A stretch of 64,000 bases of DNA. Origin: a virus. Positions within the stretch are counted from its first letter, which is position 1. Each line of letters starts with the position of its first letter. Below the pieces are notes generated by a model. It did not search any database. It saw only the letters and a list, made by a program, of their open reading frames with translations, and was not told the DNA's origin. Of this stretch, positions 45,201 to 63,037 are shown piece by piece. The stretch is taken from positions 12,859 through 76,858 of IMG/VR virus record IMGVR_UViG_3300021964_000045; one strand, given 5' to 3'. Made by a program: the position numbers and the translations under genes.

Positions 45201-48117
45201 TGAAGCTGTTAAAGAAGTGTGGGAAAGCTTAAGTAATCGTTTTGAAATACTTAAGACTTATACTAAAGATGGTGACATGTCAATTGATAATTTGATAGGT
45301 CAATTCTACAGTCACAAAAATGTTAAAGAAAACTCAGGTCTTATTGGAGCTGTTGTACCACCTGCTACAATCATTAACTTTTTAAAGGAAATGAATGTTT
45401 CTTCAGAATGGTTTAGTTTAGATGTAGATGGTATATCCTATAATAGATTTACTAATAAAAGTGAATCAGATAGAACACACTATATAATATCTAATTTAAT
45501 TACGCTTGCAACAGATGATGCAAAAGAACGTTTGCTGAGTAAACTTGGATATAACAAAAAAGGAATAAAGCTTGTTTTGGCTATGGTTTCTTTTGGTATT
45601 CCATTAGAGCAAGCATCAATGCTCGTTAATGTAAAAGCTGTAAGAGAAATTCTTGAAGAAAGTGAATCACCAATGAGTGATATTAGAGTAGCAAGAAAAG
45701 ATCTTTTAAAACGAAATGTTGAAGCTAAGCCTGTAACAACTGCTTCATTAGGTAAAGGTATAGAAGGAGATGTATCTGATCAAGAATTATTAGGTTTATT
45801 AAATCTAGTAATTCAAGCAGATGCACTATCTGGTGAAATAGATAATTTGCAAGCAATATTTAGTTTGAATAAAGGTTTTGGAAAAGACTTTTCATCTTTA
45901 ATGAATGTAGATGATTCAATAGATAAAGCAGGATTGTATTTATCTAATCAAGAAATGCAAGATTCTATTTCAAACAAACAAAGAATATTTGATTTAAGAA
46001 ATGCTTTTAGCACAGACTTATCAAAAGATAAACCAGTGCGTCACTACATTGGAGAATACATAAGAATATTTGAAGACTTTAAAAGAAATGTATTACCTGA
46101 AGTATTTACTTCTCAGAGTCCTGATTTTAAACGTATTCTTCAAGGAGTATTAAGCTACACTAAAATTGTTGGTGGAAAAGAAGGAGCTAAAGTAAAAGCT
46201 CAAATTCAAAAAGACATGCTTTCTTACTTTACAATTAAGGCTTATATGAAAGACTTATTTGATAGAGAAGCAGGATCTCTTGTTGGTGGTTCATTAACAA
46301 ATGAATTTTTGTATCCAAGTGAAAACAGTGACTTTAATATTACTACAGTATTTAAGGATCTTAAGAATAACTTTAATACAGGTGATAATTATTTTCTTGA
46401 CTATTTTGTATTTACAAAAACTGTAAAGTCAGAGGATAATAAAACAGGGATGAATATTGCAACTACAAGAAGCTTTGGTAAATTAAGTGACAATGAAAAA
46501 GTAAGAATACAAAATGGTTTTCAAGCCCTTTACGGTGATATCAAAACAAGAAAGGAAGCTGTGCATATACTTCATTATATAATGGCCAAAGACGGTTTAA
46601 GTTTGGCAGCAGGTAGTTTGTTACAAGCTATTACACCATTTGGTTTAGAAAAATATTTAGGGGCAAGTACTGAAGTGTTTAAAACATTTAAAGGACAAAA
46701 TAAATTTGAGGATGTATTTGGTCAAAGCTTACAAGAATTAAGTTTAGATTTTATAAATAACTATGGTATGTCTGCTTCTTTTGCTAGTAATATAAAAGCT
46801 GACTATACTGTTTTTTCTAAAAATTCTGGATACTCAACTAGAGCTGATAAAGATAGATTAACAGTTGTTAGATCAGATAAAGATTCAGCACCTATGATAT
46901 TTCCTAAATTTATTTTTAGAGAAACTAAAAATCCAATTGGAGTTCAAAAACAATATTATAAGTTAGTAAGTGGAAGTTTAAAAGAAAATGAAGTATCTGT
47001 TGACAATATAGACGCTTCTCTATTGACAGAAGGTCTTTATGAAAAGTTTGATTTAGAAGGTTCTTATTATCAAAATGGAATAGGATTTATTTTTGATAAT
47101 GAAAATTTTAAAAGACCAAAGACATTTGAGTTATATACAACAGATAGATTTGATGCAGTAGATGTAAACTTTGATACGACTACTATTCCGGATGATGTTA
47201 CAATGCCAGAAGGTATTTCTGAATTAAGTAGTTTAAATAATGTAAATAGAGTTGCAACAGAAAAAGGTATTGAAGTTGGAGGAAAAAATATTGCAGATAT
47301 TACAGATAAAGATATACCAGAGGGAATTAAAGATGCTGCTGATAAATTGCTAGCATTTACTAAAAAAGGTTCACCAGCAACACAAACTAGTGGGGTTACT
47401 ATAAATAATAAAAAATGGACTAAAGATTCTCCAAAAGAAAACCTTAATACTGCTTATGTATTTACAGAGAATATAAACTCAATAGGAGATACTAGAGTTG
47501 GAGGAGGCTCTGCTGTAATTAGAAATAATCCTAATGCCGTTGGTATAGTAACTAAGAAGTATTATACATATAAAGAAAATAGGGATGCTAATAATAAAGA
47601 GCAATGGAATGCTAACTTTCAAGATACAGATGCTGATTTTGAATTATTTAAGAAAGTTAACTTAGAACAATTTGCTAAATTAGATAAATTTGATTCTAAA
47701 ATATTTCCAGATTCTTTTGCTAATTCTTTGGCTGCTGTACCTAATAGATTTGCGTTATGGCTTCAGAATGAATTACAAACTAGATATGGTTTAGTTACTG
47801 AAGTAAACAGTAAAGGAACGGGTCTAATATCTAAATCTGTACAGCCAACACAACCAACACAACAAACTAGTGAAGTTGAAACTGGTCAGTTAGATTTGTT
47901 TGATGTTAGTGAATTGCAATCATTAGGTTTACCTTTGACAGATAATTTTAGTATATTGCTGGAAGATTTAAAAACAACACCTGGGGCAATTCAAAAAATG
48001 AAAGAAGATGGTGTTAATATATCAGATTTAAATTCTCTTAAAGAATCATTTAAGAAGAGTGCATTTACAGAAGAATCACAATATGAAGAGCACTTGAGAA
48101 AGTGTTACTTAAAATAA
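33289..48117 (+). CDS. Giant virion protein with crAss-type two-barrel RNA polymerase and zincin motif (4942 aa)
   Basis: VRIPTQ...GADFDIDK (DFDID at 44743-44757, about aa 3819) is the catalytic motif of crAss-like virion RNAPs; YHESFHAV (40324-40338) is a zincin HExxH; N-terminal Gly/Ala hydrophobic helices. Confidence 0.88.
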   Translation: MQDSNIQTDPIYQPDDFQFQPIDEMFDLDFDAESVQGMGDYMKNLEALAPAMNQYAMPLDLPISKHNSPKPGFDNFESFKKVFNSPTPFLGGEQQMKLQDPIISGIKSSSYDRYARMDAFDKLGWRPDMDMESYYNANTTGWDDFKRSWGPWWTNFSSGFTSAARSWGDLFSGDESYWTSADLEGATAMSEANRLGASTRGGTTGFLVNLNLNAAQTLGTISEIAAEELALAAAGAALTSTGAGAPAGIGAFVAGTGKNFVKGIKSIGNIFDITRTVRLGKDVLSTLRTADKAKDFWSVAKAGGRLAGDFFTPELRATLKSFKSSESAARGLSNLAKTSKSFGAFYRDARAINLTMSESKLEAGFAYQDMFAENVERVMRENGGAQLTPEQLNDINIEALKAATNSVLFNAPAIFITNKIVLGKALGGFSPQLRRIFNKVGNSKNIVRKTTVQNFIKNRAAGKTAGKLFQETSNKSVIGKLFGWNKLKALGVKGSLKYTAGGILRYSAGGLSEGLQEVYQEGVAVGLVDYHSALLDTPNANRHDLQKAAMMAGIDSQTTGQGFETFLSGFLMGGLVQGPQRLMFEVLPSYIQEKRNPKDYAEYKKQRDEFVDKVNDIAEEVAKDPANFMSSSKLNFFSQKQSEDDGDKHMFEDSELGLRDSNDDSFIMNAHHMVANGTEGLYIEQLEDIQKLSDEALIEAYPNQKEDIESGKFKERVDKSIERIKNFKKDYDASFNIIENPYAFKQFEQGSKEYNIALAKYSAVEHGRLLYLLSKESFKSAANRRDAIEQALKLTTAEGSADVNDLTPLLAVDSIQREVALLSSEIEALENAENIDKTILDSKKDKLVALTGYLVTLQSIEDKEAGVYDRDKMEVLKTPLKAYIESVSKNVLLDDEKLSYLVKQLVDHSYLDKRAQVYARSVSMFSDQAKFTEMSDRLSEVFLTRFNNIKRDFKASVIKGMQNQERVSLLEALAAIGSENKNGGVYAETEQSVKFMETGDASVLVDFYTEAGKVFKSNSNELYGKIQTLIDNYNRVKFESEKSDVKAEETKTDVNKKDTSTDKKSELNDYLKLSSDSPILNVEDGIDILKENESPFSKLLLEDLYSRYKQQQRIAKEPIVSKADWINTTEGTNAVAALEKLKGIWLASESNKALTDQAKNNIAKSEEGFQEWILSQKDDASVYRSLEFGGLKATDVERNETNEGFDSVVEDNPLLEWADKGPGVNILKKEIASIDSIDDEDVSDVRETIYTLTDNSGNRVSDDLLDLAGLDRAAFTDFQQAVDAFEELKKVIPDTTPFNFDGVTLKNLDVVEDANGNKFRVLGTASSANNGAKLELISLEKQDTEGVDKALSSFTVEQSGFSDLYTKVEETFEGVKLSANAVKLLPSEVNGIYPKSFGPFGTDTDVDMRFNKVLSLLSPEQLSTLEIKIRPNPNQSSNFLRAGDDTTENKLIVRGDKYTMEVVIPENMREGILERMDGFSYPENWDGAIGFVRNDHFRFTNNGNQNDIVEINQLEDKVIERYITPDGVSVSEMKQEMLKQKYLTLKIDELMKDKTNATITMADLESLNFSFKVTGGQYEDTNSYDTTYDNLDQNKYDGHKIVIVNTRNVDSIGERFETDIEDPQEHLAFVEKVISELESTPVEGGDANMYQKAISKGGYVGIIKDPLTGKIVLARLVPRNLEVDERNELFTELITKAKEVRDSKTGTQPKQTTEAESLKAVQILYQGIYGTPYQQNVGGPGLVKLEVEVEEEQDQNYVGIKFVTTIISKKGNSIKQNEKRYVTAEQFINEFNLTDEELDNTKPATKESGSQSIPLTKEDGERRIAEYGQEKLKLEKVGSGYGMPLRTYLQLMEEESTGKITVLSIRKDTANGNTFISIVGPYGPLDIQVNREPASIKQAAKSQQASKAETTKSSMPLFDWNKQFNNKFFSATNPTEKTYLDLQVTKSGDIVLRVKVGAKGSTLTAMQSFKSAELDNLKPEDILSLYSLLNQNQKVIDFNAKSNNILNFGEHNLKTTFPLDATLDQILNQTKTNLDSRVLKGVRVKLETTDEMVAGLKMVQASKPVNAPSDEYSQFVDTGFVSQETLERIANKEANKPGSLTLEEQAIYADKVAEINKILQQKANVEMQEDIDLQAMSEERYNEYKSKDFKDLPREIKIGIVNQVVQEGRESLTERQQEILKVNNDELELLIMSKSYTKPVEAEGKTLEQEIAEVEEAIKKEKKRIANEAKRTGQHQATLRKNSKIYVSLVDKLDELEKRSTDESAFKILDPSETLQKEESIDEFLEWAAVNLPDFIKIKDLSEIKTRLKSTGTTVGQFTMALRNIAGGLSVEGTIYTGPSNGIGYHESFHAVFRMLLTTEEQNNLLKLAKDEVRKKFKTYKALQEDISKFANRHPKYRQLSKAALEREYLEEYMADQFQAFKTNPRSTKTSSTIKSFFNRVVEWIKSVLKSFRKNELDLFYERIDAGKYRNTQILDNQYTNSLESGVAIDAFKAIPYKIIRGTKLKSAKYLDPAKADMLTRMIGQVYVTRRGDSKYSELQDEELLSATIIDFADLYDSEKDIYASLSDVDLDTVEQLNEALNLQEGKAVKESVTKYLDILNLKFDEMDDQIEEDEDDYGSRKVGDYTKDANQTGGYNSATKEVRTFIAGVSIDSKDMFGNVELQDGTPIRVPVNHIDVYNGLMLAGMNETSDSKMLEKLYYFSRRNENTAAVIDELFRVTGIDINEFKETGQIPNKIDNSMLFNQFMTTFKNARFDYIFQLTDPTTGKVRIISASNRDAANAQIDYWKKIFNDKFEIFRTDNASVRQAVSGVAMLSKDMEKKKITNKDLKAKSLLYSKLISEQLGIKLSPLYIEISIANNLSGKLTKYQETLIDMGKNARLLRREDLTLITTKLTGKEKSTGKPLPENLFIDDSERGLSSRLKQIALGNALFDETVGNTVFEDPERNLIYAHQNQTFHSRRMIELSDDAVIRKLQEQFPDNTLLNSEAFLELSTSKQLQLIRTAGSNMLAENVESMDLQEADDLSRQSVQGTKYGKFNSVEFTSNLINSYFERFNTKSNKVETAANTALAPVFIRLIESSNTGDSVGLPVIKAVKLSSDGKDVVLTPEAFDQFVNRLRTEYNIIQKNNQDYDKNGPGNIKGYNDSKNGRGFKFFKGDSLISKETQAELIKSAVEGKTFDEVFGKEYKTELNNIIKDYIKEFQGLAQKARLTTSQHVKGIFPDTEKASSSMEKLNVFRKNEPANLAQIFISNWLNTMAINELILGEEAKLFKDAVIDPIKRAKMQNAAHDSIAFDFLPKDDSLGISHTLGRESIGLFTFTDPATEDGGDKADAQSYQTAKGARYSAYGLGSLNSALAKMYDAIDNGESVDNDWFSTYLKQHPKHAPLNSKKYVFGNGQTFIKTSTVVLTKELTSYKNEEGAWVAKVGMERLHNLRENMERWESQNDGKIAIAAPESAVKMLKQNVIDNESMTAETMVLNEEHVTLLDAKDFGRQMVNPSNKLLMTDASQIKTIITSEQAVLDKDFKVVIDGEELPIADVVKEYHRFTAAGVNFEYSDKKNLIFDLLPHLEESVLEQMDIEPNLYSFIKTAQANLKSSAASSTEVEFFTEEDGKPKYELNNPITSQKFEQFFMAYFSKKVLSQKVPGVTLALMSDFGVPVIREIYSFDTTGRPDKQRVVRRKNSNQYNGQNLLDITNAEDLELAKQQLESDPSKPIVVLDRLRYDMKEYDMVNPNDPSTWVATNIRYAETLMPAHHEDVMRHLENKNIKDLPDSVAKMFAVRIPTQDKHSSIPSKVVDFLPVFYGSTAIFPEDLIKVSGADFDIDKVYAAIKEWYYKDGKFTEYGTRKGSEGFADYIRYTNKKVAERGSNLNEALLKYNAGGLAAEVESKSIEEIMDLLTLGYSPEAIDASIMLGLPITEKEYNKYIKDNGVEPYKASITNKLVSLKYSLVGNTKLTETTDGSVPVSYQPADIEAVKEVWESLSNRFEILKTYTKDGDMSIDNLIGQFYSHKNVKENSGLIGAVVPPATIINFLKEMNVSSEWFSLDVDGISYNRFTNKSESDRTHYIISNLITLATDDAKERLLSKLGYNKKGIKLVLAMVSFGIPLEQASMLVNVKAVREILEESESPMSDIRVARKDLLKRNVEAKPVTTASLGKGIEGDVSDQELLGLLNLVIQADALSGEIDNLQAIFSLNKGFGKDFSSLMNVDDSIDKAGLYLSNQEMQDSISNKQRIFDLRNAFSTDLSKDKPVRHYIGEYIRIFEDFKRNVLPEVFTSQSPDFKRILQGVLSYTKIVGGKEGAKVKAQIQKDMLSYFTIKAYMKDLFDREAGSLVGGSLTNEFLYPSENSDFNITTVFKDLKNNFNTGDNYFLDYFVFTKTVKSEDNKTGMNIATTRSFGKLSDNEKVRIQNGFQALYGDIKTRKEAVHILHYIMAKDGLSLAAGSLLQAITPFGLEKYLGASTEVFKTFKGQNKFEDVFGQSLQELSLDFINNYGMSASFASNIKADYTVFSKNSGYSTRADKDRLTVVRSDKDSAPMIFPKFIFRETKNPIGVQKQYYKLVSGSLKENEVSVDNIDASLLTEGLYEKFDLEGSYYQNGIGFIFDNENFKRPKTFELYTTDRFDAVDVNFDTTTIPDDVTMPEGISELSSLNNVNRVATEKGIEVGGKNIADITDKDIPEGIKDAADKLLAFTKKGSPATQTSGVTINNKKWTKDSPKENLNTAYVFTENINSIGDTRVGGGSAVIRNNPNAVGIVTKKYYTYKENRDANNKEQWNANFQDTDADFELFKKVNLEQFAKLDKFDSKIFPDSFANSLAAVPNRFALWLQNELQTRYGLVTEVNSKGTGLISKSVQPTQPTQQTSEVETGQLDLFDVSELQSLGLPLTDNFSILLEDLKTTPGAIQKMKEDGVNISDLNSLKESFKKSAFTEESQYEEHLRKCYLK

Positions 48118-48124
48118 AATAATA

Positions 48125-51100
48125 ATGGCTAAGTGTTATAATAAAAATTTACCTGAGTATCAATCTTTATCTGAAGAGTTTAAAGATAACATGGTTGTTG
48201 ATAGCTTAATTGAAAAATGGCAAGCATTAAATAACTCAGAAGAGTTCCCTACTGTAGAACAAGCAAAACAAGTAAAAGAAGAACTTAATTTATCTTTTTC
48301 ATTAAAGACTAAGGCTTTTACAGATGCGTTAATATCTAATTTAGTAAGAAACAAAATTATACATTACTCAGAAAAGTATGGTGGTTACTATCTTAATAAT
48401 ACTAGAGGGGATGAAAGAATTGGTAATCCTGAAAGCTTAAGAATTAACTATAATAGATTAATGGGTTACTTAGATAAAAATAAGATACCTAGAGATGTTA
48501 TAGATGATACTGAAACAAGGAGGTCACGTAGGATTTTTATAAATGAAGATGCACTGATGCCTGCAGATGTTTTACCAAAAAGCAGAAGAGCAGCAGGTAC
48601 TCACACAGTTGATGTATTAAATCACGTGAGACAAATGATACCTGGCTTAGAGTATAAAATTCTGTCTGTTAAAGAAGCAGAGAATCTTTATGAGTCATTA
48701 CCACCATCTCAAAAAAATAAAACACCATTTGCTCAAATAAATAGTTTTTACGTAAATCAAACAGCTATCTTAATCAAAGGTAGAGTTACCCATGACATTG
48801 CAATAGAAGAGGTCTTACACCCTTTAATTGATGCAGTGTATGTAGACAACCAAGAGTTATTTAATAGCTTGTACAATGAAGCTGTAGCTAATTTTCCTGA
48901 ACTCAAGCAAGAAATAGATGAAGCTTATAATACTAAGTATAGAAAGTTTAGTGAAAAGCACAGACAACTTGAACTTGTTACTCAAGCTTTAACAAGATAT
49001 TTTTCTAATGAGTTTGAAAATACACCAACTAAATCATTTAGAGATAAGGTTGGAGAGTTTTTAAATTGGTTCTTAGATGTAATTAAAAATCTTTATGAAG
49101 TATATACAGGTGGTACAGCTAAGCTTAAAGTAGATAATATAAAACCAGGAACAAGTTTATCAGATATTGCAAAACTTCTTAATACAAGTGAGCTTCAATT
49201 TAAGTTAGAAAAGAAAGTTGATTCTAAGGTTAGATATTCACTATCTGAAGAAAAGCAAAACTCATTAGATCAAATAAGAAGAAAAGGTAATGATGCACAA
49301 AAAATTGTTTTAGATAAACTATTTCATGCTGCACAACAAAGAAAAGGAGATACGCCTACATTCAGTGTAGGTAAAAAAGATATTGGAGATAATGATGACA
49401 TAGTAATATTAAATGAGAAAAATCATACTTACTATAATTTAAAAGATCTATCTATTGAATATGTTTCATCTACAACTGCTATTGGTGGTAAGATGGAAAA
49501 CTTAGATAATGTACAAATGAATCTTGCCGTTGGTAATGACTTTGACAATATAGCTGAGTCTATAGTATTAGGAAAGTCATTAGCGGATATCAAAGAAGCT
49601 GGTATGCAAATCTTAACTGATGAGCAACTAACCAGAGCATATTATTCAATGGATGGATATATCAAGGCAATTACCAACCAAGGAGATATATTAGTACCTC
49701 AAGTTGTTGTTCATGGTAAAAACGCAGAAGGTATTAACATTGCAGGAACTATTGATTTACTTGCAATAACACCACAGGGTAAATTAAAAATATTAGATTT
49801 AAAGACAAGTAAAAATAGATTATCAACTAGTGAAGATGGTAAATATAATACTGAATGGGATTTAAAAGATGATTCTTTATTAAAAGCTTATGGTGTAGAA
49901 AAATTATCAACTAAACAAAAACATAATCTTCAAGTAAACTTATATGCAAGAATGCTTGAGAATATGGGCTATGAAGTTGACTCTTCTGAACAAGGGGCAA
50001 GTACTCATCATATATGGGTTGACATAAAAGGTAAAGGTAAAAATCAAACATTTTCAGGAAATTTTGAAATAGAGGATATGGTTTTTCATCCTATAAGTCA
50101 AAATAAACCTTACGTTGATGCTCTAATGCCTAAGAATATAAATAAAGTATCACAAGCAGAACTTGATAAGGCACTAGCTGATACGGGTGATTCAACCAAA
50201 ATACTTGATGAAATAAACAACTCTGAATTTGAAGGACTAGATGAATATAACCCATCTGAATTTGGTGGATTGGAACAAAACATGTACTTCAATGCAATTA
50301 AAAAATATAGAAAAAGTCTTACAACTAGACGTGATGTAATTGAAACAGTAAGATCTGCTGTTTACATGGACAGATCTAAAGAAGATGCAGTAGAAAGAAT
50401 AAGTACTATGCTTGCATTTACAACTATTGCATTAACGGAAAAAGGAGAAGCACCTAGAGTATTTACAGAATTGCTTAGAGATGTTAAAAAAGAATTAGAA
50501 TCCTATGAAAAGTTTCTTTTAAATAAAGACAATGCATCTAATCCACTATATTTAACAAGGGCAACAAATTATGAAAACTTTATTAAAACATTTGAAGGAT
50601 TATATAAATTACCATCTATTGCCTCGTTAACTGGAATACAGAAAGATCTAATACTACAAATACAAAATACATTAAATAGACTTAGTGAATCTACTGCGGA
50701 AAAACCAAGCATTATTGATGAAGCATTATTTACTCATGGAAAAGCTATTATTAAAAAATATTCAGGTAAAGATTTTACATCTTATGTAGATCCTATAACA
50801 GGAGAAGTTGTAAATCCATTTGACGATTTATTTTACTCTGTAATAGAAGACATGAGTACTGTTGATTATTATACAAGAGATATAAATACAGCAGAAGATA
50901 CTATTCTTGCTACAATGAAAAAGATGTGGCATGCAAAAAGGCAAGAAGTTCTTGATAGAATAGAAGCAAGAAAAGGTTTTGTTTTATATGCGTCTAGACT
51001 AGCTAAGCTATCACCAGGAAAAAGTCCAAAAGATATCTATGAATTCATGATTGAATTGGATAAAAATGGTGTACATACGGGAGAGCTAGTTAAAAAGATA

Positions 51101-53881
51101 GGACCTCAATACTATGATCAGTTTAATGCTTTATATAAATCATTACGTGATTCTAATGGAGAACCTCTGCAGTATATACCAATTGGTGATATTGCTAAAG
51201 CAAGACCAGAAGATATTAAAAAGAACAAAGAGTTGTATCAAAAAAAGCAAGCATTTGCAGAATTTATGCGAGCTGAAATTGTAGACCAAGAAGATGGTAC
51301 AACAACAGATGGTGAATTTCACAGATATACTTCTGAATTTATAGAAGCAAGAAAGAGAAATGAAGTACAAACATCAAATGGTTTTTGGGTATGGAATGGT
51401 GCTAAAGGTAAAGAAGAAGAAATTTACTATAACAAATACTATACTGTACAAAAATATAATCAAGCCATAAAAAAGGATGGTGTATTTACAGGTAAGGTTA
51501 TAGAAAAAGAAGGTAGATTTGTTAAGAAAGAATACAAAGAGATAAGAGAAGTATCAGGCTCTGGGCAGGTAATGACTAGTGATAAATACAGAGCTATAAT
51601 GAATGCACCACAAACGGATGCACTAGCTTCAGCAAGAAAAAGTTATTACTTAGCTTATACTGCACTATGGAAAGATCTCAATGACAAACTTCCTGATGGT
51701 GTTAGAGATTACATGTATGGTAAATCCCCACGAGTACGTGGTAATTTTGCAAGCTATGCTAAAAATAAACCTAATGGAGTCAAAGCATTATGGGCATCCA
51801 CAAAAAAAGATACTAAAGAGTTCTTTTCTACAACCACAAGATTAACTAAAGTTAATGTAAATGAAAAAGGAGAATTTGTTGAAGGTATACCTATTATGTA
51901 TACAGGTAACCTTAGACAAGCAGAAGATATAGAAGCTATAGAAAAACAGATCAAAGAACTTAAAGATACATACGCTAACACATCTGCTGCAAATTCTCAA
52001 TCATATGTAAAAACATTACAGAAACTTGAGTCTGAATTAGTTGCAGTAAAGTCTAAACCAGCAGCGGAAGAGTTAAGTTATGACTTAACAGAAGCTATAA
52101 TGAAATATGCTGCCATGGCTGAAAACTATGAAGTCATGAGTGGTATTGAAGATACAATGCTTGCTTTACAAGAGATTATAAATAAAAGACAATACTCTAA
52201 AAGAGTTACAACAAGTAAAAAAGTAATAAGAGGTGCTAAAAAATTAGCAGGAGTTGCACAAGATGCAGCTGATACAAAAGCAATGAATACAAAGAATGCT
52301 GCTGGAAAGTTTATGGAAATGGTATTTTATGATTCAGATGACTTAACTAAAAATGCAGCAGAAAAAATTATAGATAAAATTTTAGGTTGGACTTCATTAA
52401 GTTATGTTGCATTTAATGTTTTTGGTAACTTTAATAACTACACCATTGCAAGAGTAAATAATGGTATAGAAGCAATGGGTCAAAGATTTTTTGCTAGAAA
52501 TGCTTATATAAGAGCATCAAAAGAATTTAATAAAAGAGCTATTCCAGATCTTATTAAAAGAACTTCTCATTCTGCAACTGCACTAAGAGGTTCTGGAAAG
52601 TATGATCCATATGAACCCACAAGTAAGTATGAAGGATTTGTTGATTTATTTAGAATGATGGATAATAAATCAGACTTAAGAGAAGCAGGTGGTGTTACCG
52701 ATAGAACAGGTAAAAGTTATTATGACCGCTTTAAAGAATTTGGTTATATATTACAGGATGCTGCAGAATATAATGTGCAGACTAAGGTGGGTATGGCCAT
52801 TGTTATGGATACTTACATTTTAAATAAAGACACAGGTGAAATTTTAAGTTTGTATGATGCCTTTGAATTTAATGGGGATCAAAAGCTATCATTAAAAGAT
52901 GGATTTACAACAATAATTAAACCTAAAAAGAATTTACCAACCTTTAAACAAGCTCTAAGTGGAACTAATATAAAAAGAGATGATCAAGGTAATATGCTTT
53001 ATGATGAAGTGGGTGAATATAATGATAAGTTTAGATATGATTTACGTATGAAAATACGTGAAGTAAATAAACAAATACATGGTAACTATGCTAAAGAAGA
53101 TAAGGTTGTATTACAACAGTGGTATGTAGGTAAGTTGCTATTTCAATTTCATAAGTGGGTTGCTCCTGCGCTTAGAGCAAGATATCAAAGAGAATATTTT
53201 GATGAAAACTTAGGTTGGATGGAAGGTAGAATTTTATCTTGGTGGAAATTTGTTAAGTATATGACATTAGCATCTGTTGGGAAACTACCAGGTAATTTAA
53301 ACAAAGGTATGAGTGTTGAAGCTTATTTAGATAGTATTGCAAGAAAAGATGTGAATGGTGAAATAAGTGCTTCTGAACAACAAAGATTAGAAAATCAAAT
53401 ATTAAATGTTCATAGATTTAATGGTGAGTTAGCTACAATAGGTTTAACATTTATGATAATAGAATTATTTAATACAATACTTTTATCTGATGATGATGAC
53501 AGTATGTGGGTTAAAAAACTTAAAAACATTGCACGTTACCAAGCAGATAGAACTAAAAAAGAATTGATGATATTTGTTCCAAGTAAAAGTATGATAACAC
53601 AAAATGTAGAATTCTTTGATAGCCCTCTTGCAGTAACAGGGACGCTTGGAGAAATGGGTGAACTTATTGATTCAGGATGGGACTATGGTAAAAATGGATT
53701 AAAATACACTATGACAGGCAATGAAGAAGACTGGTTCTATAATAAAGATGTATATTATCAAAGAGGTAGAAGAGCAGGTCAGCTTAAATTAACTAAAGAA
53801 TTTATGGACATAGTACCAATTTTGTACACAATAAAGAAGTGGCAAGATTACGAACAGTTAAATAATTTCTTCATTAAGTAA
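48125..53881 (+). CDS. Large virion/ejected protein with PD-(D/E)xK nuclease and degenerate zincin (1918 aa)
   Basis: IAGTIDLL...ILDLKTS...QVNLYARML (RecB-like); IEEVLHP in place of HExxH; helical C-terminal region. Confidence 0.75.
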   Translation: MAKCYNKNLPEYQSLSEEFKDNMVVDSLIEKWQALNNSEEFPTVEQAKQVKEELNLSFSLKTKAFTDALISNLVRNKIIHYSEKYGGYYLNNTRGDERIGNPESLRINYNRLMGYLDKNKIPRDVIDDTETRRSRRIFINEDALMPADVLPKSRRAAGTHTVDVLNHVRQMIPGLEYKILSVKEAENLYESLPPSQKNKTPFAQINSFYVNQTAILIKGRVTHDIAIEEVLHPLIDAVYVDNQELFNSLYNEAVANFPELKQEIDEAYNTKYRKFSEKHRQLELVTQALTRYFSNEFENTPTKSFRDKVGEFLNWFLDVIKNLYEVYTGGTAKLKVDNIKPGTSLSDIAKLLNTSELQFKLEKKVDSKVRYSLSEEKQNSLDQIRRKGNDAQKIVLDKLFHAAQQRKGDTPTFSVGKKDIGDNDDIVILNEKNHTYYNLKDLSIEYVSSTTAIGGKMENLDNVQMNLAVGNDFDNIAESIVLGKSLADIKEAGMQILTDEQLTRAYYSMDGYIKAITNQGDILVPQVVVHGKNAEGINIAGTIDLLAITPQGKLKILDLKTSKNRLSTSEDGKYNTEWDLKDDSLLKAYGVEKLSTKQKHNLQVNLYARMLENMGYEVDSSEQGASTHHIWVDIKGKGKNQTFSGNFEIEDMVFHPISQNKPYVDALMPKNINKVSQAELDKALADTGDSTKILDEINNSEFEGLDEYNPSEFGGLEQNMYFNAIKKYRKSLTTRRDVIETVRSAVYMDRSKEDAVERISTMLAFTTIALTEKGEAPRVFTELLRDVKKELESYEKFLLNKDNASNPLYLTRATNYENFIKTFEGLYKLPSIASLTGIQKDLILQIQNTLNRLSESTAEKPSIIDEALFTHGKAIIKKYSGKDFTSYVDPITGEVVNPFDDLFYSVIEDMSTVDYYTRDINTAEDTILATMKKMWHAKRQEVLDRIEARKGFVLYASRLAKLSPGKSPKDIYEFMIELDKNGVHTGELVKKIGPQYYDQFNALYKSLRDSNGEPLQYIPIGDIAKARPEDIKKNKELYQKKQAFAEFMRAEIVDQEDGTTTDGEFHRYTSEFIEARKRNEVQTSNGFWVWNGAKGKEEEIYYNKYYTVQKYNQAIKKDGVFTGKVIEKEGRFVKKEYKEIREVSGSGQVMTSDKYRAIMNAPQTDALASARKSYYLAYTALWKDLNDKLPDGVRDYMYGKSPRVRGNFASYAKNKPNGVKALWASTKKDTKEFFSTTTRLTKVNVNEKGEFVEGIPIMYTGNLRQAEDIEAIEKQIKELKDTYANTSAANSQSYVKTLQKLESELVAVKSKPAAEELSYDLTEAIMKYAAMAENYEVMSGIEDTMLALQEIINKRQYSKRVTTSKKVIRGAKKLAGVAQDAADTKAMNTKNAAGKFMEMVFYDSDDLTKNAAEKIIDKILGWTSLSYVAFNVFGNFNNYTIARVNNGIEAMGQRFFARNAYIRASKEFNKRAIPDLIKRTSHSATALRGSGKYDPYEPTSKYEGFVDLFRMMDNKSDLREAGGVTDRTGKSYYDRFKEFGYILQDAAEYNVQTKVGMAIVMDTYILNKDTGEILSLYDAFEFNGDQKLSLKDGFTTIIKPKKNLPTFKQALSGTNIKRDDQGNMLYDEVGEYNDKFRYDLRMKIREVNKQIHGNYAKEDKVVLQQWYVGKLLFQFHKWVAPALRARYQREYFDENLGWMEGRILSWWKFVKYMTLASVGKLPGNLNKGMSVEAYLDSIARKDVNGEISASEQQRLENQILNVHRFNGELATIGLTFMIIELFNTILLSDDDDSMWVKKLKNIARYQADRTKKELMIFVPSKSMITQNVEFFDSPLAVTGTLGEMGELIDSGWDYGKNGLKYTMTGNEEDWFYNKDVYYQRGRRAGQLKLTKEFMDIVPILYTIKKWQDYEQLNNFFIK

Positions 53882-53885
53882 ACAG

Positions 53886-53913
53886 AAGGGGAGCTTTTAT
53901 AGCTCCTCTTTTA
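53886..53913. terminator. Hairpin between convergent genes (probable terminator)
   Basis: aaggggagct-tttat-agctcctctt plus T tract at the +/- strand junction. Confidence 0.7.
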
Positions 53914-54495
53914 TTTTCCTATCTTCCAGTAAAGACCACCGGATATAACAGGTTCAAAGTTTTGGTTAACCCCTAAACCTATGCTATACATTTGTTTCTT
54001 TTTATTCTTATATAGTAGACTACCACCTAAGTAATTTAGCTGATCTGATCTACCTTTTAAATCAATACCCCAATAGAACTCTCTATTATTTAAATAGATT
54101 TCTTTTGTTACTGTAGTTGTTGGATAAATAAGATCATACTCTATAGTCCGTGCAAATATTTTGTTCTGAGATATAGAATCAATTATAGTTAGATTAAGAC
54201 TATCTAATTCTTGTTTGTCTTGATATACGTATGTAGCAAAGTAATCTTTTAATATTGCTACTGTATCAATAGGTTGTATTCTAACTATTGTGTCTACCCT
54301 GGTCTCTATTTTTTGTACATACTCAGGTACGTAAACAGGTACGTTTTTAGTAATTGTATCATACCTGGTTTCAATCTTTGTTATAATAACAGGGTCAACA
54401 GGAATAGGATCCCCTGAACAGTTTCTCATTATTAATAATATAATCACTAAGATCACTATCAATAAGGTTTGTAAATTTTTAAAGTACTTTTTCAT
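53911..54495 (-). CDS. Membrane-anchored spanin-like protein (194 aa)
   Basis: N-terminal TM followed by RNCS; DT-rich extended stalk; C-terminal amphipathic beta strands ending GGLYWKIGK. Resembles lysis-accessory (DUF6808-like) genes of Bacteroidota phages. Confidence 0.5.
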   Translation of the reverse strand: MKKYFKNLQTLLIVILVIILLIMRNCSGDPIPVDPVIITKIETRYDTITKNVPVYVPEYVQKIETRVDTIVRIQPIDTVAILKDYFATYVYQDKQELDSLNLTIIDSISQNKIFARTIEYDLIYPTTTVTKEIYLNNREFYWGIDLKGRSDQLNYLGGSLLYKNKKKQMYSIGLGVNQNFEPVISGGLYWKIGK

Positions 54496-55106
54496 TTCTT
54501 ATCAGTATTAGTTGCATGCTTTACACCCATTATTGTACCTATTATACTAAAAGAGTTAGTTAACAGTATACCAAATAAATTGGACCAGGTACTCTCTATT
54601 ATTTTAGAATCATGTCCAAACAATAAAACAAACACATATAAGCCGGTTGTTATTAATCCTACTCCCATGATTACCCAAAGAGCAACCTTGACAATATTAC
54701 TCATTAGTTCTGTTTGTGTTTTCTTTTGGAGTAATGACAAATCAGTTTGAGCAATTTCTTTTGCTTCCTCAGCTTCTGATCTTAATTTATGAGCTTCCTT
54801 TTCAGCTAAAATTGCTTCTTCTGCTGACTTACTTGCTTCATCTAAAGCTTTTGATAGTTGTTTATTTACCCTATCATTTTCTTTAGCTGCTAATTCTAAA
54901 TCTTTATTTTGAGCCTGAACCTGTTTAGTTATATCTAAACGTTTTCTTCTTTGAGATAAATCTTTCTTCTTACACTCTTCAATATAATCTTTAACTTCAG
55001 GATCAGAAGTCTTAGCCAACAACTTAACAAAGTTTCCTTCTATGTAAACTTTTTTAGTCTTAGCTTTCTTAATAGCTTCTTTGATAGTGTCTTTAGAACT
55101 TATCAC
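54492..55106 (-). CDS. Coiled-coil protein with two C-terminal TM helices, holin-like (204 aa)
   Basis: Charged N-terminal coiled coil; TM1 VALWVIMGVGLITTGLYVFVLLF; TM2 LFGILLTNSFSIIGTIMGV; GTG start overlaps the regulator's stop. Confidence 0.55.
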   Translation of the reverse strand: MISSKDTIKEAIKKAKTKKVYIEGNFVKLLAKTSDPEVKDYIEECKKKDLSQRRKRLDITKQVQAQNKDLELAAKENDRVNKQLSKALDEASKSAEEAILAEKEAHKLRSEAEEAKEIAQTDLSLLQKKTQTELMSNIVKVALWVIMGVGLITTGLYVFVLLFGHDSKIIESTWSNLFGILLTNSFSIIGTIMGVKHATNTDKK

Positions 55107-55537
55107 CTATATACTTTAAAAGGATTAGTTTTATTGACATAACCATCATAGTCTTTGTGAAACTCCTCTAGTCTTGGCTCAATGTCATCAGACTTAATAA
55201 TCCAAAACTGTGCACCTACTTCTTTAGCTTTTTCAATTTCCCCGCTATCACTGCTGCTAGAAATAATGCCAATAACACATCCGTTACCATAATCTTGATT
55301 TATCTTCCTTATCATTTCTATACCGTCAAAGCTAGAACCAATAATATTAAGATCTACAAAGACACACTGGGGCCTATCATTTCCATTATCTGGAAACCAA
55401 CTCTTAAACATTCTATCAGCTTCATCTGAGCTATCCAGTGATTCTATAGATAAAGCTATATCTAACATACTACAAGCATCTTCAAATACCAAATGAAATA
55501 AATTTTCATCATCTATTAGCATTAATGTATCAATCAT
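55103..55537 (-). CDS. Single-domain response regulator (CheY/Rcp1-like receiver), 144 aa
   Basis: LIDD (D9,D10), VFVDLN (D62), DGIE, IISSS (S93), GAQFWIIK (K115); no output domain. Confidence 0.92.
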   Translation of the reverse strand: MIDTLMLIDDENLFHLVFEDACSMLDIALSIESLDSSDEADRMFKSWFPDNGNDRPQCVFVDLNIIGSSFDGIEMIRKINQDYGNGCVIGIISSSSDSGEIEKAKEVGAQFWIIKSDDIEPRLEEFHKDYDGYVNKTNPFKVYR

Positions 55538-56433
55538 AATTTTATTTTTATTTCTGTTCCTTGTTCTAATTTTTTTGCACTTACTTTAAATTTGTGCTCT
55601 TTTAAAATTGCAATTGAAATATTAAGACCCAATCCTGTGCCTGCTTCTTCTTGCCCTTCTTTTCTTGCGTATGGTTTTGATAATAAAATAAATTCTTCAT
55701 TGGTGATTCCTCTACCGTTGTCTTGTATAGCAATAAAGGAATTCAATTCATCATCTATATCTTTATAAATTTTAATATACTTTGTACCTGAGTCATTATA
55801 TTTCAATCCATTTCTTATGAAGTTATCTAAAGCTGTACAAAATAATGCTTCATTTATTTTTAATGATGTATCTAAACTATCATCTAGTATAACTTGATTC
55901 TTGTAAGCAGTTAAACGTAAATAGTCTTCTAGTATAAATTTTATATTTTTTAATTCAGTTTTTAACTCAGCATTTTCTTTTACAAGATTTGTAAACTCAT
56001 AAACTCCTGCATAAACTTTTTGTGCATGATGTAATCCATCAGTTATTAATTTAATTGGAGCATTTATTTTTAACTCTTTAATATCTTCTTCACTAAGTCT
56101 ACGCTTGAGAGATTTAAGACCTCTGGGTAAATAAGTGTTAATGCCACTATGCATGTCATGACGTATGATTTTTGCTGCGTGTTCTAGATATATATTCTTT
56201 TGAGAAAGGTCTTTTCTTATTTTAGCTTTATTTAATAAAAACTCTTGTACTACTTTAAAAAAAGGAGGCATAAAAAATACAACACATCCCCAACCAAACT
56301 TAGCCAACTCTAAAGACGGATCACATAATCCAAACACAATACATGTCTGCACTCCAAAAAATGTAATCATAATTAGACCAGCAACAGCTAATGATATTTT
56401 AGCGTTTAATGATATATCATCTAAAGCACTCAT
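55534..56433 (-). CDS. Membrane sensor histidine kinase (299 aa)
   Basis: Two N-terminal TMs; H box IIRHDM (H92); N box LDNFIRNGLKY; G1 IQDNGRGI; G2 GTGLGL. Confidence 0.92.
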   Translation of the reverse strand: MSALDDISLNAKISLAVAGLIMITFFGVQTCIVFGLCDPSLELAKFGWGCVVFFMPPFFKVVQEFLLNKAKIRKDLSQKNIYLEHAAKIIRHDMHSGINTYLPRGLKSLKRRLSEEDIKELKINAPIKLITDGLHHAQKVYAGVYEFTNLVKENAELKTELKNIKFILEDYLRLTAYKNQVILDDSLDTSLKINEALFCTALDNFIRNGLKYNDSGTKYIKIYKDIDDELNSFIAIQDNGRGITNEEFILLSKPYARKEGQEEAGTGLGLNISIAILKEHKFKVSAKKLEQGTEIKIKL

Positions 56434-56435
56434 GC

Positions 56436-56636
56436 TTATAGCTCAGATTTCTTAAATCCACATTTGCTAAAAAACCATTTAGACGGACAAAATCCTGTCC
56501 ATACACCAACGTTTAACATAAATGTTACAAAGATTACTACCGCCCAGGATTCAAAAAAATAGCCTGCAAGTAATACTATAGACATTAACAAGTAAACCAT
56601 TCTTGTATCAGTAATTGACTCAAATAATTTTTTCAT
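56436..56636 (-). CDS. DUF2892/YgaP-like two-TM membrane protein (66 aa)
   Basis: R followed by two hydrophobic helices ending TGFCP, the DUF2892-type signature. Confidence 0.7.
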   Translation of the reverse strand: MKKLFESITDTRMVYLLMSIVLLAGYFFESWAVVIFVTFMLNVGVWTGFCPSKWFFSKCGFKKSEL

Positions 56637-56647
56637 AATATAAAATT

Positions 56648-56758
56648 TTAGTGCATTGATATAGTATCAAAAAAAGCAACCTTAAGTCTTATCCAAAACC
56701 TTTTAGACCACTTTAAAGATTTAAATTCTTCTGTTTCAAAATATTCATACACATCCAT
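56648..56758 (-). CDS. Small hypothetical protein (36 aa; not in ORF track)
   Basis: Translated by hand: MDVYEYFETEEFKSLKWSKRFWIRLKVAFFDTISMH. Fills the gap between the promoter motif and the DUF2892 gene. Confidence 0.5.
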   Translation of the reverse strand: MDVYEYFETEEFKSLKWSKRFWIRLKVAFFDTISMH

Positions 56759-56761
56759 ATA

Positions 56762-56773
56762 ATAATATACAAA
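56762..56773 (-). promoter_or_regulatory. Putative phage (late) promoter motif TTTGTATATTAT heading the signalling operon
   Basis: Reverse complement of ataatatacaaa; same core as the structural-gene motif; follows the nrdA terminator. Confidence 0.65.
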
Positions 56774-56782
56774 TTATATGCT

Positions 56783-56824
56783 TGTAAAACAAGAAGAACC
56801 GGCCTCAGAATAAGACCGGTTCTT
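56783..56824 (-). terminator. Terminator downstream of nrdA
   Basis: Minus strand aagaaccggtct-tattctg-aggccggttctt followed by cttgtttt. Confidence 0.7.
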
Positions 56825-59860: not shown

Positions 59861-59873
59861 TTTTGTATATTAT
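59861..59873 (+). promoter_or_regulatory. Putative phage (late) promoter motif TTTTGTATATTAT
   Basis: Exact copy of the motif at the strand switch. Confidence 0.65.
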
Positions 59874-59939: not shown

Positions 59940-60251
59940 ATGGACTCTACACAAATTATAATAACCGTACTTACGGTTGCCGGATCAACCGGTGTCTGGC
60001 AGTTTATAGCAACAAGATATAAATCCAATAAAGAAAAAGAAAAGTTTGATACATTAAATAGTGACGGTGTGCAATATAGAGATGATTTAAAAAATAGAGT
60101 AAGAAACTTAGAAAGTTTGCTTGCTGTAAGCTCTGATGAAAAAGATTTAATGAGAGAGCAAGTACTTGCATTAACAGCAGAAGTACATGCACTTAGAGTA
60201 AAGGTTGACTTCTTAGAAAAAGAAAATCAAAGACTTAAGAATTTGAGTTAA
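59940..60251 (+). CDS. Single-TM plus coiled-coil protein, holin/antiholin-like (103 aa)
   Basis: IIITVLTVAGSTGVWQFI followed by heptad repeats. Confidence 0.5.
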   Translation: MDSTQIIITVLTVAGSTGVWQFIATRYKSNKEKEKFDTLNSDGVQYRDDLKNRVRNLESLLAVSSDEKDLMREQVLALTAEVHALRVKVDFLEKENQRLKNLS

Positions 60252-60289
60252 CAAAAAAAAATATTATATTTATATATAAACACATTACT

Positions 60290-60544
60290 ATGATAAAAAT
60301 TGTTTTAAATAAAATTTGGAATTTCTCACTTAAAAAAGGTTGGGATTGGGTTTGGTCTAAAACAACAGTAGATGAAAAAGCTATTGAAGTTGTTAAAGAA
60401 ACAAAGCGTAGAGCCAAAAGAGTAAAGGAAGAATTCCAGGATGTAAAAGCTGAGGTCAAAGATGTTGTTAAACAATCTAAGGATGTAGTTGATGCAGCTA
60501 AAGGTAAAAGACGTAGAGGTAGACCAAAGAAAAAAGCAGAGTAA
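60290..60544 (+). CDS. Basic amphipathic protein with C-terminal AT-hook-like RRGRPKK (84 aa)
   Basis: Intact ORF, coupled by TAATG to the next gene. Confidence 0.55.
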   Translation: MIKIVLNKIWNFSLKKGWDWVWSKTTVDEKAIEVVKETKRRAKRVKEEFQDVKAEVKDVVKQSKDVVDAAKGKRRRGRPKKKAE

Positions 60545-60786
60545 TGAAAAAGATAATTAATTGGGCAGCAGGTTTACTTAAAGATGAGAAGGGTTCTCCT
60601 TCATCAAAAAGATTTATTGGTGTTATAGCTGGTTTATCTTTATGTATAACTCTTTTTGCAAATCAATTTACAGAAGAGCACATTGCTCCTTCTCCTATTT
60701 TAATTAATGCTGTTGCAGCTTTAGCTTTTGGTGCATTGGGTTTAGCTTCTGTAGATAAAATTTGGAGTAAAAGAGATAAAGAATAG
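60544..60786 (+). CDS. Two-TM holin-like protein (80 aa)
   Basis: SSKR followed by two TM helices and a charged C-terminal tail. Confidence 0.55.
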   Translation: MKKIINWAAGLLKDEKGSPSSKRFIGVIAGLSLCITLFANQFTEEHIAPSPILINAVAALAFGALGLASVDKIWSKRDKE

Positions 60787-61089: not shown

Positions 61090-61380
61090 ATGTTATTTGG
61101 AAAAAAAACAAAAATATATGCACCAAATATCAGCGCTAATGTAGAAGCTGATGTAGATGCTAAAATGAAAAAAGGTGGTGAAAAAGGAGCAAAAGCTCTT
61201 ATTGCTGCCTTAAAAAAACAAGGTTATAAAAACGGTGGTGAAAATACATCACTACTAAATAAAATGACTTATGGTGGTGGTATTGATATGTCAGAAAAAC
61301 TTGTAAACACTATGAGAGGTGCAGGAAAAAAAATGCAAATAGGGGGTAGCACATACTCAGGACCTAAAAAGAAAAAGTAA
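61090..61380 (+). CDS. Small basic protein with four xxxGG motifs, probable internal virion protein (96 aa)
   Basis: MKKGG, YKNGG, MTYGG, MQIGG. Confidence 0.55.
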   Translation: MLFGKKTKIYAPNISANVEADVDAKMKKGGEKGAKALIAALKKQGYKNGGENTSLLNKMTYGGGIDMSEKLVNTMRGAGKKMQIGGSTYSGPKKKK

Positions 61381-61961
61381 TGCAAATACTAACTGACATA
61401 TTAAGTCTTTTTAAAAGAAAACAAATGGTCAAGGAGACAACTCCAGATGACCTTATTGTTATTGGTAGACATGAAGAGCCGGATATGTTAGGTATTGCAT
61501 CCCCTATACCATATAAATCAGCTAAGTTAATAAAGGTTAAAGACTTATTAAATATTTCTGAGTGTAATTACTCAAACCTTAATAATGCTACTGGAACAAA
61601 TCCCAATGGAATTTATATTAATAAAACAAGTGATCCTTGCTCTGTTAATTTAAGATCTATTACAGCTGTGGGTAACAACATAAACATTGTTACAAATAGC
61701 AATGAGATTGAAGTTTCAACTACAGGTGAACCAAATATAGGTTACAGTGTAGGTACAGGAAAGTCAATATATAAAGATAAACTAGGAGAAATATTAAGAT
61801 TCAAAACTATAACAAATGGTAATGGAGCAATTGGTATTACAGAAAGTGCTGATGAAATTGATATTAATTTAAAAAAAGTTTTACTATCATCACCAGATGG
61901 TACCGTATGGGAAATTACAGTTGATAATGGTGGTAAAATTACAGCAACAGCTCAACCTTAA
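61380..61961 (+). CDS. Fibre/decoration-like protein, paralog 1 (193 aa)
   Basis: Shared N-terminal domain; C-terminal LSSPDGTVWEITVDNGG fibre-type motif. Confidence 0.6.
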   Translation: MQILTDILSLFKRKQMVKETTPDDLIVIGRHEEPDMLGIASPIPYKSAKLIKVKDLLNISECNYSNLNNATGTNPNGIYINKTSDPCSVNLRSITAVGNNINIVTNSNEIEVSTTGEPNIGYSVGTGKSIYKDKLGEILRFKTITNGNGAIGITESADEIDINLKKVLLSSPDGTVWEITVDNGGKITATAQP

Positions 61962-61967
61962 AGAATA

Positions 61968-62588
61968 ATGAATTTATTACAAGACATACTAGGACTAGTT
62001 ACAAGAAAACAACAAGTTAAACCTGTTGACACTGATGTACTACCTATTGGTAGATATAAAACTTCCAAAGAAGTATTTAAACCAAAACCAGAGATGAAAA
62101 CAAATCTGGTTACTTTAAGGGACTTAAAAAATTATATTAGTAAAGATCCATCTGGAGATAATCAAACATTATCCCTGGATGGAAATGATTTATCTATATC
62201 AAACGGAAATACAGTAGACTTATCTACTCTTGATCTTGATTCATCTTCAGTACCTGTTAAGTTAGTACCATTTAATATAGTAGCAGGGGCAGATCAATCT
62301 GGTTCTATACCATTAGATTTTAATCTAATTAATCTTTCATGGGATGGTTTAGATAATGGAACATATACATTAAATATTCCTAGTGCATCTTCAATGCTGT
62401 ATAGAAATATACGCATTGTGACTGATGGTACATTGGATAATGGTGCTCAAGATAAAATAAATGTAACACCAGTACATGGAGAAACTATAGATGGAGCTCC
62501 ATTTTTTGAAATATCTAAACGTTATGAAGGTATTTCCATATGGTCAGATGGTGTAGAGTGGAGAATTATACAAGCTAAAGCACACTAA
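61968..62588 (+). CDS. Fibre/decoration-like protein, paralog 2 (206 aa)
   Basis: Shared N-terminal domain; QTLSLDGNDLSISNGNTVDL repeat; ETIDG...WSDGVEW tip motif. Confidence 0.6.
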   Translation: MNLLQDILGLVTRKQQVKPVDTDVLPIGRYKTSKEVFKPKPEMKTNLVTLRDLKNYISKDPSGDNQTLSLDGNDLSISNGNTVDLSTLDLDSSSVPVKLVPFNIVAGADQSGSIPLDFNLINLSWDGLDNGTYTLNIPSASSMLYRNIRIVTDGTLDNGAQDKINVTPVHGETIDGAPFFEISKRYEGISIWSDGVEWRIIQAKAH

Positions 62589-62590
62589 AC

Positions 62591-63024: not shown

Positions 63025-63037
63025 AAACTAGATAATT

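Follow-up and report, generated by a model that had tools for sequence, protein, structure and literature searches.

A phage two-component module with a candidate lysis-linked membrane output in a distant crAss-like phage of aquatic metagenomes

The DNA analysed here, a stretch of 64,000 nucleotides called the window throughout, comprises bases 12859-76858 of a 76,858-bp IMG/VR viral contig (IMGVR_UViG_3300021964_000045; G000). Its minus strand carries a compact operon in which the genes for a membrane histidine kinase and a receiver-only response regulator are followed directly by the gene for p204, a protein that ends in a two-helix membrane hairpin (Table 1). Six open reading frames (ORFs) make up the unit. 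Only 2 nt separate p66 from the kinase, and the kinase, receiver, p204 and p194 genes are linked by successive 4-nt overlaps at 55534-55537 (ATGA), 55103-55106 (GTGA) and 54492-54495 (ATGA). A terminator-like hairpin at each end sets the unit apart. The upstream hairpin separates it from the nrdBA genes and is kept in the sister genome described below, where both arms carry substitutions and still pair for the most part, by visual inspection of the alignment rather than a count of pairs. A promoter-like 12-mer, TTTGTATATTAT, heads the operon, and a -35-like hexamer, TTTACA, lies 18 nt upstream of the TATTAT within it. An earlier note, made from the letters of this DNA alone, had described the six ORFs, the three overlaps, the catalytic residues of the kinase and receiver, both terminators and the shared 12-mer, and all of these were confirmed where it had placed them.

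Table 1. Features of the operon and of other parts of the window (position 1 is the first base of the window)
Feature	Position	Strand	Description
Hairpin, terminator-like	56794-56824	-	after nrdA; 14-bp stem then T run
12-mer, promoter-like, TTTGTATATTAT	56762-56773	-	heads the signalling operon
p36 ORF	56648-56758	-	36 aa
p66 ORF	56436-56636	-	membrane protein with two transmembrane segments (2-TM)
Kinase ORF	55534-56433	-	membrane histidine kinase, short form
Receiver ORF	55103-55537	-	receiver-only response regulator, 144 aa
p204 ORF	54492-55106	-	GTG start; N-terminus shared with aligned homologues
p194 ORF	53911-54495	-	lineage-specific, N-terminal TM anchor
Hairpin, terminator-like, bidirectional	53884-53912	both	between p194 and the convergent 1918-aa gene
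80-aa 2-TM protein	60544-60786	+	74% identical to L048:4353-4595, directly before an Amidase_2 endolysin
Three-gene block	59940-60786	+	103-aa protein (N-terminal TM and coiled coil), 84-aa basic protein, 80-aa 2-TM protein
Giant ORF	33289-48117	+	4942 aa
Giant ORF	48125-53881	+	1918 aa
Giant ORF	16553-21640	+	1695 aa
Giant ORF	4012-8904	+	1630 aa
Consecutive protein 1	61380-61961	+	N-terminal motif M..L.DIL.L..RKQ
Consecutive protein 2	61968-62588	+	same N-terminal motif
Consecutive protein 3	63038-64000	+	same N-terminal motif

Judged by its crAss-type terminase, portal and major capsid protein (MCP), G000 is a distant crAss-like (Crassvirales-related) phage, and it is apparently lytic. Its large terminase subunit (TerL) matches phrog_6681 (4.5e-60) and, aligned over 85-89% of its length, shares 24-27% identity with the TerLs of crAss-like phages of Bacteroides, Flavobacterium and Cellulophaga; the portal matches phrog_6547 at 4.7e-94 and the MCP phrog_11589 at 4.8e-32. 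CheckV places the completeness of G000 at 67%. A sister genome of 116,877 bp, G001, is complete and collinear with G000 at ~80% nucleotide identity, and it holds the same operon, again between nrdBA and the convergent 1918-aa gene. Metagenomes from many studies (estuary, marine and seawater) contain near-identical DNA.

The kinase begins with a transmembrane (TM) hairpin (two TMs, an outer loop of ~13 residues and three conserved Cys), which is followed by a DHp domain containing H92 and then by an ATPase domain, a match to HATPase_c (PF02518) at 7.4e-12 in Pfam. H92, located in IIRHDMHSGINTY, is invariant in 17 homologues, as are the N, G1 and G2 boxes (N204/N208, DNGRG and GTGLGLN). The Pfam HisKA model itself gives no score on the window kinase; distant matches to VicK, KinB and EnvZ span the DHp-CA region, and the nearest solved relatives are VicK/CovS-like proteins, QseC, WalK and CpxA. 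The Cys flanking the short outer loop are C37, which never varies, and C31 and C50, each with a conservation of at least 90%. The window kinase has no PAS domain; the G001 kinase (L022:8001-9281, 426 aa) has one of ~120 aa. Among the kinases of relatives, four length classes can be told apart: those without PAS, those with a C-terminal insert, those with PAS and those with both GAF and PAS. Short forms are present in many relatives as well.

The receiver consists of a single Pfam domain, Response_reg (PF00072; 1.4e-7, 32.1 bits versus a cut-off of 30.2), with a conserved C-terminal extension, and Pfam finds no LytTR DNA-binding output in it. Residues D9, D10, D62, S93 and K115 and the aromatic switch residue W112 are invariant in 25 receivers, for which the mean column identity is 83%. 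Indeed, the receiver is the most conserved part of the module, with 66-91% identity across loci. The Pfam matches and alignments bear out both of the earlier note's statements about this pair, that kinase and regulator have their catalytic residues intact and that the regulator has no output domain. Kinase and receiver belong to a real, phage-specific two-component module, in which phosphotransfer from H92 to D62 is predicted.

Two small proteins are encoded ahead of the kinase. p66, which is 68-88% identical across loci, always lies directly upstream of the kinase gene and is missing at L049/L050, where the kinase N-terminus is of another kind. Its motif WTGFCPSK is invariant, and this includes the GFCP motif and, within it, C50. 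The description of p66 as DUF2892-like is a weak one: the GFCP motif is present, and the match to PF11127 (YgaP-like_TM) reaches E 0.093 and 13.3 bits versus a cut-off of 25.3. Three of 15 p66 homologues match this family, the best at E 0.024 and none above the cut-off, and the Atlas lead to DUF2892/YgaP-like_TM scores only 0.89. p66 is a candidate accessory partner of the kinase membrane module. The conserved Cys of the kinase loop and of p66 suggest, speculatively, a thiol/redox cue or some other cue of membrane state. p36 has homologues of 36-41 aa (45-56% identity) that sit between the endolysin and a holin_4-like gene in relatives, and it has no Pfam match. It is optional in the family and missing from G001. 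Since the p36 ATG in the window comes 3 nt after the promoter-like motif, p36 would be translated either from a leaderless transcript or not at all from this promoter; this position and the absence of p36 from G001 make its expression in the window doubtful.

The product of the gene that follows the receiver, p204, contains a small N-terminal helical domain (N-domain, ~residues 1-75), a long helix/coiled coil and a C-terminal 2-TM hairpin, with ~130 cytoplasmic residues ahead of the hairpin. TM2 is polar and nearly invariant, and the protein ends in a charged tail, KHATNTDKK. In an AlphaFold model with a predicted local distance difference test score (pLDDT) of 80, one unbroken helix from 36 to 163 runs into TM1 and is followed by TM2. 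A profile search of 1.84 billion representatives recovered 247 relatives of p204 (representative clusters), and it was only this search that revealed fused forms, since a homologue search for longer forms of p204 found none. In the fused forms, the coiled coil and hairpin are joined to a GAF domain (P0268), to one PAS domain (P0282, P0298) or to two PAS domains (P0292), which replace the N-domain. Fusions of the P0292 type occur at 253 viral loci. The kinase and receiver are absent from the sensor-hairpin loci examined, and in six of the eight, only a few genes separate the fusion from an endolysin-class gene or a holin-like gene of the smallTM84 type. In the clearest examples, the gene order is endolysin, fusion, small 2-TM protein at L141; endolysin, fusion, small 2-TM protein, second endolysin at L150; and fusion, small 2-TM protein, lysozyme, peptidase at L115.

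The other end of p204 is found in new company as well. In soluble HisKA-HATPase_c kinases (P0367, P0381 and P0386; 318-342 aa), the N-domain and the start of the helix take the place of the sensor part, and such fusions are seen on several independent contigs. A metagenome scan with the N-domain-kinase fusions and a viral-contig scan with P0381 both gave only p204-type N-domain matches and no full-length fusion. Two further combinations, P0315 (N-domain with FecCD) and P0286 (a GT2 domain with the hairpin), are singletons on contigs of 1.5 kb and 0.8 kb, respectively, and were set aside as probable chimeric assemblies. Because of these domain fusions, the hairpin may be regarded as a constant output, the helix as a transmission element and the N-domain as an input module; the N-domain behaves as an input module in that it stands in place of the sensor domain on HisKA-HATPase_c kinases. 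p204 is the candidate output, putatively as a holin- or antiholin-like protein. A predicted complex of the receiver with p204 residues 1-90 gave a median score of 0.19 versus a mark of 0.32 and was not used as evidence either way.

The position of the module in related phages connects it with lysis. In relatives, nrdB and nrdA are usually followed by genes for a small 2-TM protein, an endolysin, p36, a 140-aa protein that is holin_4-like, p66, the kinase and the receiver; then come, at some loci, a 162-aa membrane protein, and next p204 and a further membrane protein. Upstream flank of at least 2 kb is available for 34 loci. Of these, 31 have an endolysin gene and 29 the holin_4-like gene within 3 kb. 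The 140-aa protein matches Phage_holin_4_1 at 22.4 bits versus a cut-off of 22.2 and the holin family phrog_199 at E 5e-4. The endolysins belong to five non-homologous types: PG_binding_1 plus Amidase_2, Amidase_2 alone, Phage_lysozyme (1.9e-42), the peptidase-type phrog_894 (5.4e-40) and phrog_33083 (5.5e-16). The gene order is sometimes rearranged, with endolysin adjacency retained. Since the order varies and the endolysin may be of any of five types, the association appears to be with lysis function and not only a matter of inherited synteny. No holin_4-like gene is present in the window. The candidate canonical holin of this phage is the 80-aa 2-TM protein listed in Table 1, a homologue of the small 2-TM protein encoded ahead of the endolysin in relatives. 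Its gene belongs to a divergent block, at a distance of 3.8 kb from the operon, and the promoter-like motif at 59862 heads this block too.

The module is widespread among viruses. A kinase scan of viral contigs yielded 56 loci at 58-76% identity, nearly all of which keep the order p66-kinase-receiver-p204; the flanking NrdA is only ~39% identical. The receiver family forms 3,741 clusters in a search of 5.8 billion proteins, with best-match contigs of up to ~120 kb. Among 50,697 phage records, tblastn found no match to the receiver, and blastn with the operon region found nothing; the kinase gave only weak ATPase-domain matches there, and no cultured phage with the module was found. A search of 185,579 species genomes revealed no receiver homologue in isolate genomes and close relatives on just six contigs of metagenome-assembled genomes (MAGs; L067-L072), which are binned to five phyla (as Verrucomicrobia, Bdellovibrionota, Alphaproteobacteria, Bacteroidetes and Proteobacteria). 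Because each of these contigs has the same kinase-receiver-p204 set, spread over five phyla, they are very probably phage DNA mis-binned into MAGs. The earlier note had asked whether the closest homologues would prove to be host-chromosomal with the same neighbours, and whether linkage would fail to be conserved across phages. Instead, the cellular matches carry the phage module, and linkage is kept in 56 viral contigs.

The 12-mer at the head of the operon provides a possible connection to the virion genes. Four exact copies are found in the window versus 0.04 expected, a number that none of 100 shuffles reaches, and every exact copy is intergenic and in the same orientation as the next gene. 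The window sites lie at 822, 10226, 25121, 56762 and 59862. Overall, there are seven motif sites in G000 and nine in G001, all of them intergenic and co-oriented, 10-68 nt before start codons. Those in G000 precede a gene between portal and capsid, genes of 403, 183, 721 and 763 aa, the 103-aa gene at 59940 and the operon. G001 has corresponding sites, those of structural genes included, and a one-mismatch copy, GTTGTATATTAT, 35 nt before p66. The claim that the operon and the virion genes are headed by one motif is thus upheld in both genomes, and since the motif precedes structural genes in each, co-regulation of the operon with virion genes is plausible. From this we infer that the operon is expressed late. 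The 12-mer is not an exact fit to the TAnnTTTG -7 box of Bacteroidota.

From this evidence, namely the intact catalytic residues, the gene order, the conservation, the placement within lysis cassettes in relatives and the domain fusions, we lean slightly towards the view that the phage phosphorelay acts on the p204 membrane protein, not on DNA, and through p204 on the timing of lysis. The overlap of the receiver stop codon with the p204 start codon also counts for p204 as the output of the receiver. Further points in favour are that the receiver and the p204 N-domain have their nearest relative in common, G001, and that the promoter-like motif also precedes structural genes in G000 and G001. 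In the proposed mechanism, the kinase, which is nearly without an external loop, would read a signal in or at the membrane, probably together with p66; in relatives, cytoplasmic PAS or GAF domains would add input. The kinase would then autophosphorylate on H92 and act as phosphodonor for D62 of the receiver; once phosphorylated, the receiver would bind the small N-terminal domain of p204. The resulting change would run down the long helix of p204 to the two-helix membrane hairpin, which would either promote or delay hole formation by the phage holins and so set the time of lysis.

Several observations weigh against this view. p204 belongs to no Pfam or PHROG family, holin families included, and matches no known holin or antiholin family and nothing in the 50,697 phage records; the label holin-like, as the earlier note used it, is borne out by topology, that is, by the two TMs, and fails as a statement of holin-family sequence similarity. 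Many of the 56 loci come from related phages, so the neighbourhood counts do not represent independent events. Three of the 34 loci, G001 (L022), L006 and L039, are exceptions to endolysin adjacency. In G001 a PG_binding_1 plus Amidase_2 endolysin is encoded near the terminase, ~68 kb from the operon, among genes for soluble proteins and without membrane-protein neighbours; the corresponding region is missing from the incomplete G000. The link to lysis that the earlier note proposed is supported by comparison with relatives, where the module (31 of 34 loci) and also the sensor-fused hairpins lie in lysis cassettes; in the G000/G001 lineage itself, p204, with its two TMs and charged tail, is not endolysin-adjacent. 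Some 20 relatives have an extra membrane-protein gene between receiver and p204, and translational coupling of the two is therefore not universal. Finally, the co-inheritance of the receiver with the p204 N-domain, described below, could reflect mere adjacency on the DNA.

The same facts allow other explanations, and the one that survives best, although we consider it unlikely, is that the relay controls some other late membrane function through p204, such as superinfection exclusion, controlled depolarisation or envelope protection. The closeness of lysis genes would then reflect a shared region of membrane and late accessory genes. That the module works away from an endolysin in this lineage, that p204 belongs to no holin family, and that the region in relatives also has nrdBA and other accessory genes are all in keeping with this idea. 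However, sensor-hairpin fusions directly between endolysin and holin-like genes (L141, L150, L115) are not readily explained by it, nor is an adjacency retained across five different endolysin types.

A more improbable explanation is that p204 is the phage's own holin and p194 its spanin, which together would form a self-contained lysis unit gated by the relay. The topology of p204, with two TMs and a short charged C-terminus, is like that of class II holins, and the G001 endolysin has no adjacent holin. Translation of p194 is coupled to that of p204, and the protein combines an anchoring TM at its N-terminus with an invariant Cys (Cys26) and an external (periplasmic) domain, predicted to be beta-rich in a low-confidence model. 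However, a separate 80-aa holin-like gene is retained at 60544-60786, and relatives encode two other holin-like proteins besides p204, so that p204 is more easily seen as a regulator than as the main holin. In addition, the spanin label proved to be one of topology, and p194 has the features of neither an i-spanin/o-spanin pair nor a u-spanin. There is no C-terminal TM or hydrophobic segment, every homologue has R or K at -2 from Cys26, unlike a typical lipobox, and the predicted domain is beta-rich rather than coiled coil. No same-strand ORF of at least 30 aa lies inside or after p194, and no ORF for a partner lipoprotein is present. Pfam and PHROG, spanin families included, give no match to p194, and its AlphaFold 2 model is poor (pLDDT 60) and has no Foldseek match in the PDB at E<=0.001. 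Because there is no family or fold match, no partner lipoprotein ORF and no C-terminal TM, p194 is not, by its sequence, a member of any spanin class. Nor is p194 found in any other lineage with the module: it is confined to this crAss-like lineage (347 clusters, on contigs of up to ~117-140 kb), and among the 56 loci it occurs only in G001.

Other matches were noted for membrane and cell-envelope proteins of these phages. The 162-aa membrane protein of relatives (L026:3206-3694 and ~20 other loci), for which the window has no gene, weakly matches the Rz-like spanin family phrog_1327 (E 0.004). An Atlas lead to p194 as a DUF6808 protein was not confirmed: no p194 homologue matches PF20647, and the weak match in the genome falls on a 172-aa gene near the terminase (G000:C1:975-1493; L058), which scores 18 bits, below the cut-off. 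The G001 counterpart of that gene likewise has a weak DUF6808 match.

That the targets of the receiver lie in the host, where it would serve as a phosphate sink or hijack a host phosphorelay and so reprogram host physiology, with p204 as an unrelated neighbour or an anchor, is quite improbable. Single-domain receivers of the CheY type can act as phosphate sinks or partner-switchers, and the highly conserved receiver surface (by the mean column identity given above) would suit such a role. However, the receiver is invariably accompanied by its own kinase and by p204, and the PAS/GAF-hairpin versions drop the receiver and keep the hairpin, which points to the hairpin as the conserved output. Last, the recent capture of a host two-component system without a phage-specific role was rejected as extremely improbable, since nothing was found for it other than a kinase core that is generic HisKA-type by distant similarity, and against it stand the conserved viral linkage, thousands of phage variants with invariant catalytic residues, the absence of the receiver from isolate genomes and the phage module on all six MAG contigs.

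The receiver and the p204 N-domain of the window are nearest to those of G001 (91% and 76% identity). In contrast, the p204 hairpin shares 95% identity with that of L028, from another lineage, and only 62% with that of G001 (L022), and the membrane (TM) part of the kinase is 91% identical to L002 versus 79% to G001. The operon is thus a mosaic, and recombination breakpoints probably lie within p204 and within the kinase. In the G000/G001 lineage, the module appears to have moved from the endolysin and to have gained p194, and the window kinase is of the form without PAS. A broader proposal, which we put forward tentatively and hold to be a little less than evenly probable, is that these genes represent a modular lysis-control device of aquatic phages with one-component (PAS/GAF-hairpin) and two-component forms. 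In the latter, the phosphorelay would gate a holin- or antiholin-like hairpin post-translationally, lysis would be timed on the redox or energy state of the membrane, and parts would be swapped between unrelated lineages by recombination.

Elsewhere in the window, the three-gene block at 59940-60786 may hold further lysis or envelope genes of this phage. The four giant ORFs (Table 1) are typical of crAss-like virion or cargo proteins. The three consecutive proteins at 61380-64000 have divergent C-terminal parts behind their common N-terminal motif and resemble fibre or receptor-binding proteins that share one adaptor.

The proposed device can be compared with several known systems. Lysis inhibition in T4 (holin T, antiholins RI and RIII) is also a signal-responsive lysis clock that is regulated after translation, and there, too, a sensed condition alters a membrane lysis protein via contacts on its soluble domain. 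However, there is no sequence relationship; T4 uses neither a kinase nor phosphotransfer and responds to superinfection, which it senses in the periplasm, whereas here a kinase/receiver pair or a fused PAS/GAF sensor would feed a cytoplasmic input domain. The LytSR-CidAB/LrgAB system of bacteria is similar in that it, too, links holin-like membrane proteins to a kinase in the membrane, one regarded as a sensor of membrane state. It differs in that LytR is a DNA-binding LytTR regulator of transcription and the phage receiver has no output domain; LytS is a multi-pass sensor and the phage kinase has two TMs; p204 is unrelated to Cid/Lrg; and the system described here is phage-borne. Class II holins and pinholins (phage 21 S68/S71) and lambda S105/S107 resemble p204 in their N-in/C-in two-helix hairpin and short charged C-terminus, and in relatives p204, too, is encoded among lysis genes. 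Unlike these proteins, p204 has its long cytoplasmic portion before the hairpin, there is no homology, and hole formation by p204 is putative. VqmA of phage VP882 and AimR of the arbitrium system are likewise sensors of the phage's own that choose when to kill the host, but they are one-component DNA-binding receptors that control lysis-lysogeny genes, and the system here would be a phosphorelay or fused sensor ending in a membrane protein. No description of the module was found in the literature on phage kinase/regulator pairs linked to lysis, on crAss-like histidine kinases or on DUF6808.

The timing of lysis sets the burst size and fitness of a phage. To our knowledge, little is known about the condition-dependent adjustment of lysis beyond T4-type lysis inhibition and a few switches at the level of transcription. 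A complete phosphorelay would, if the proposal is true, be a new way to couple lysis to a sensed signal, and it would represent a rare two-component system with a membrane protein as its output. The module, joined to a membrane hairpin found only in phages, recurs in thousands of phage variants from marine and fresh waters, and its kinase core, receiver, N-domain and hairpin are compact, separable parts. What the window adds is that the module persists when detached from the endolysin, that the PAS input is dispensable, and that the module is a mosaic between phage lineages.

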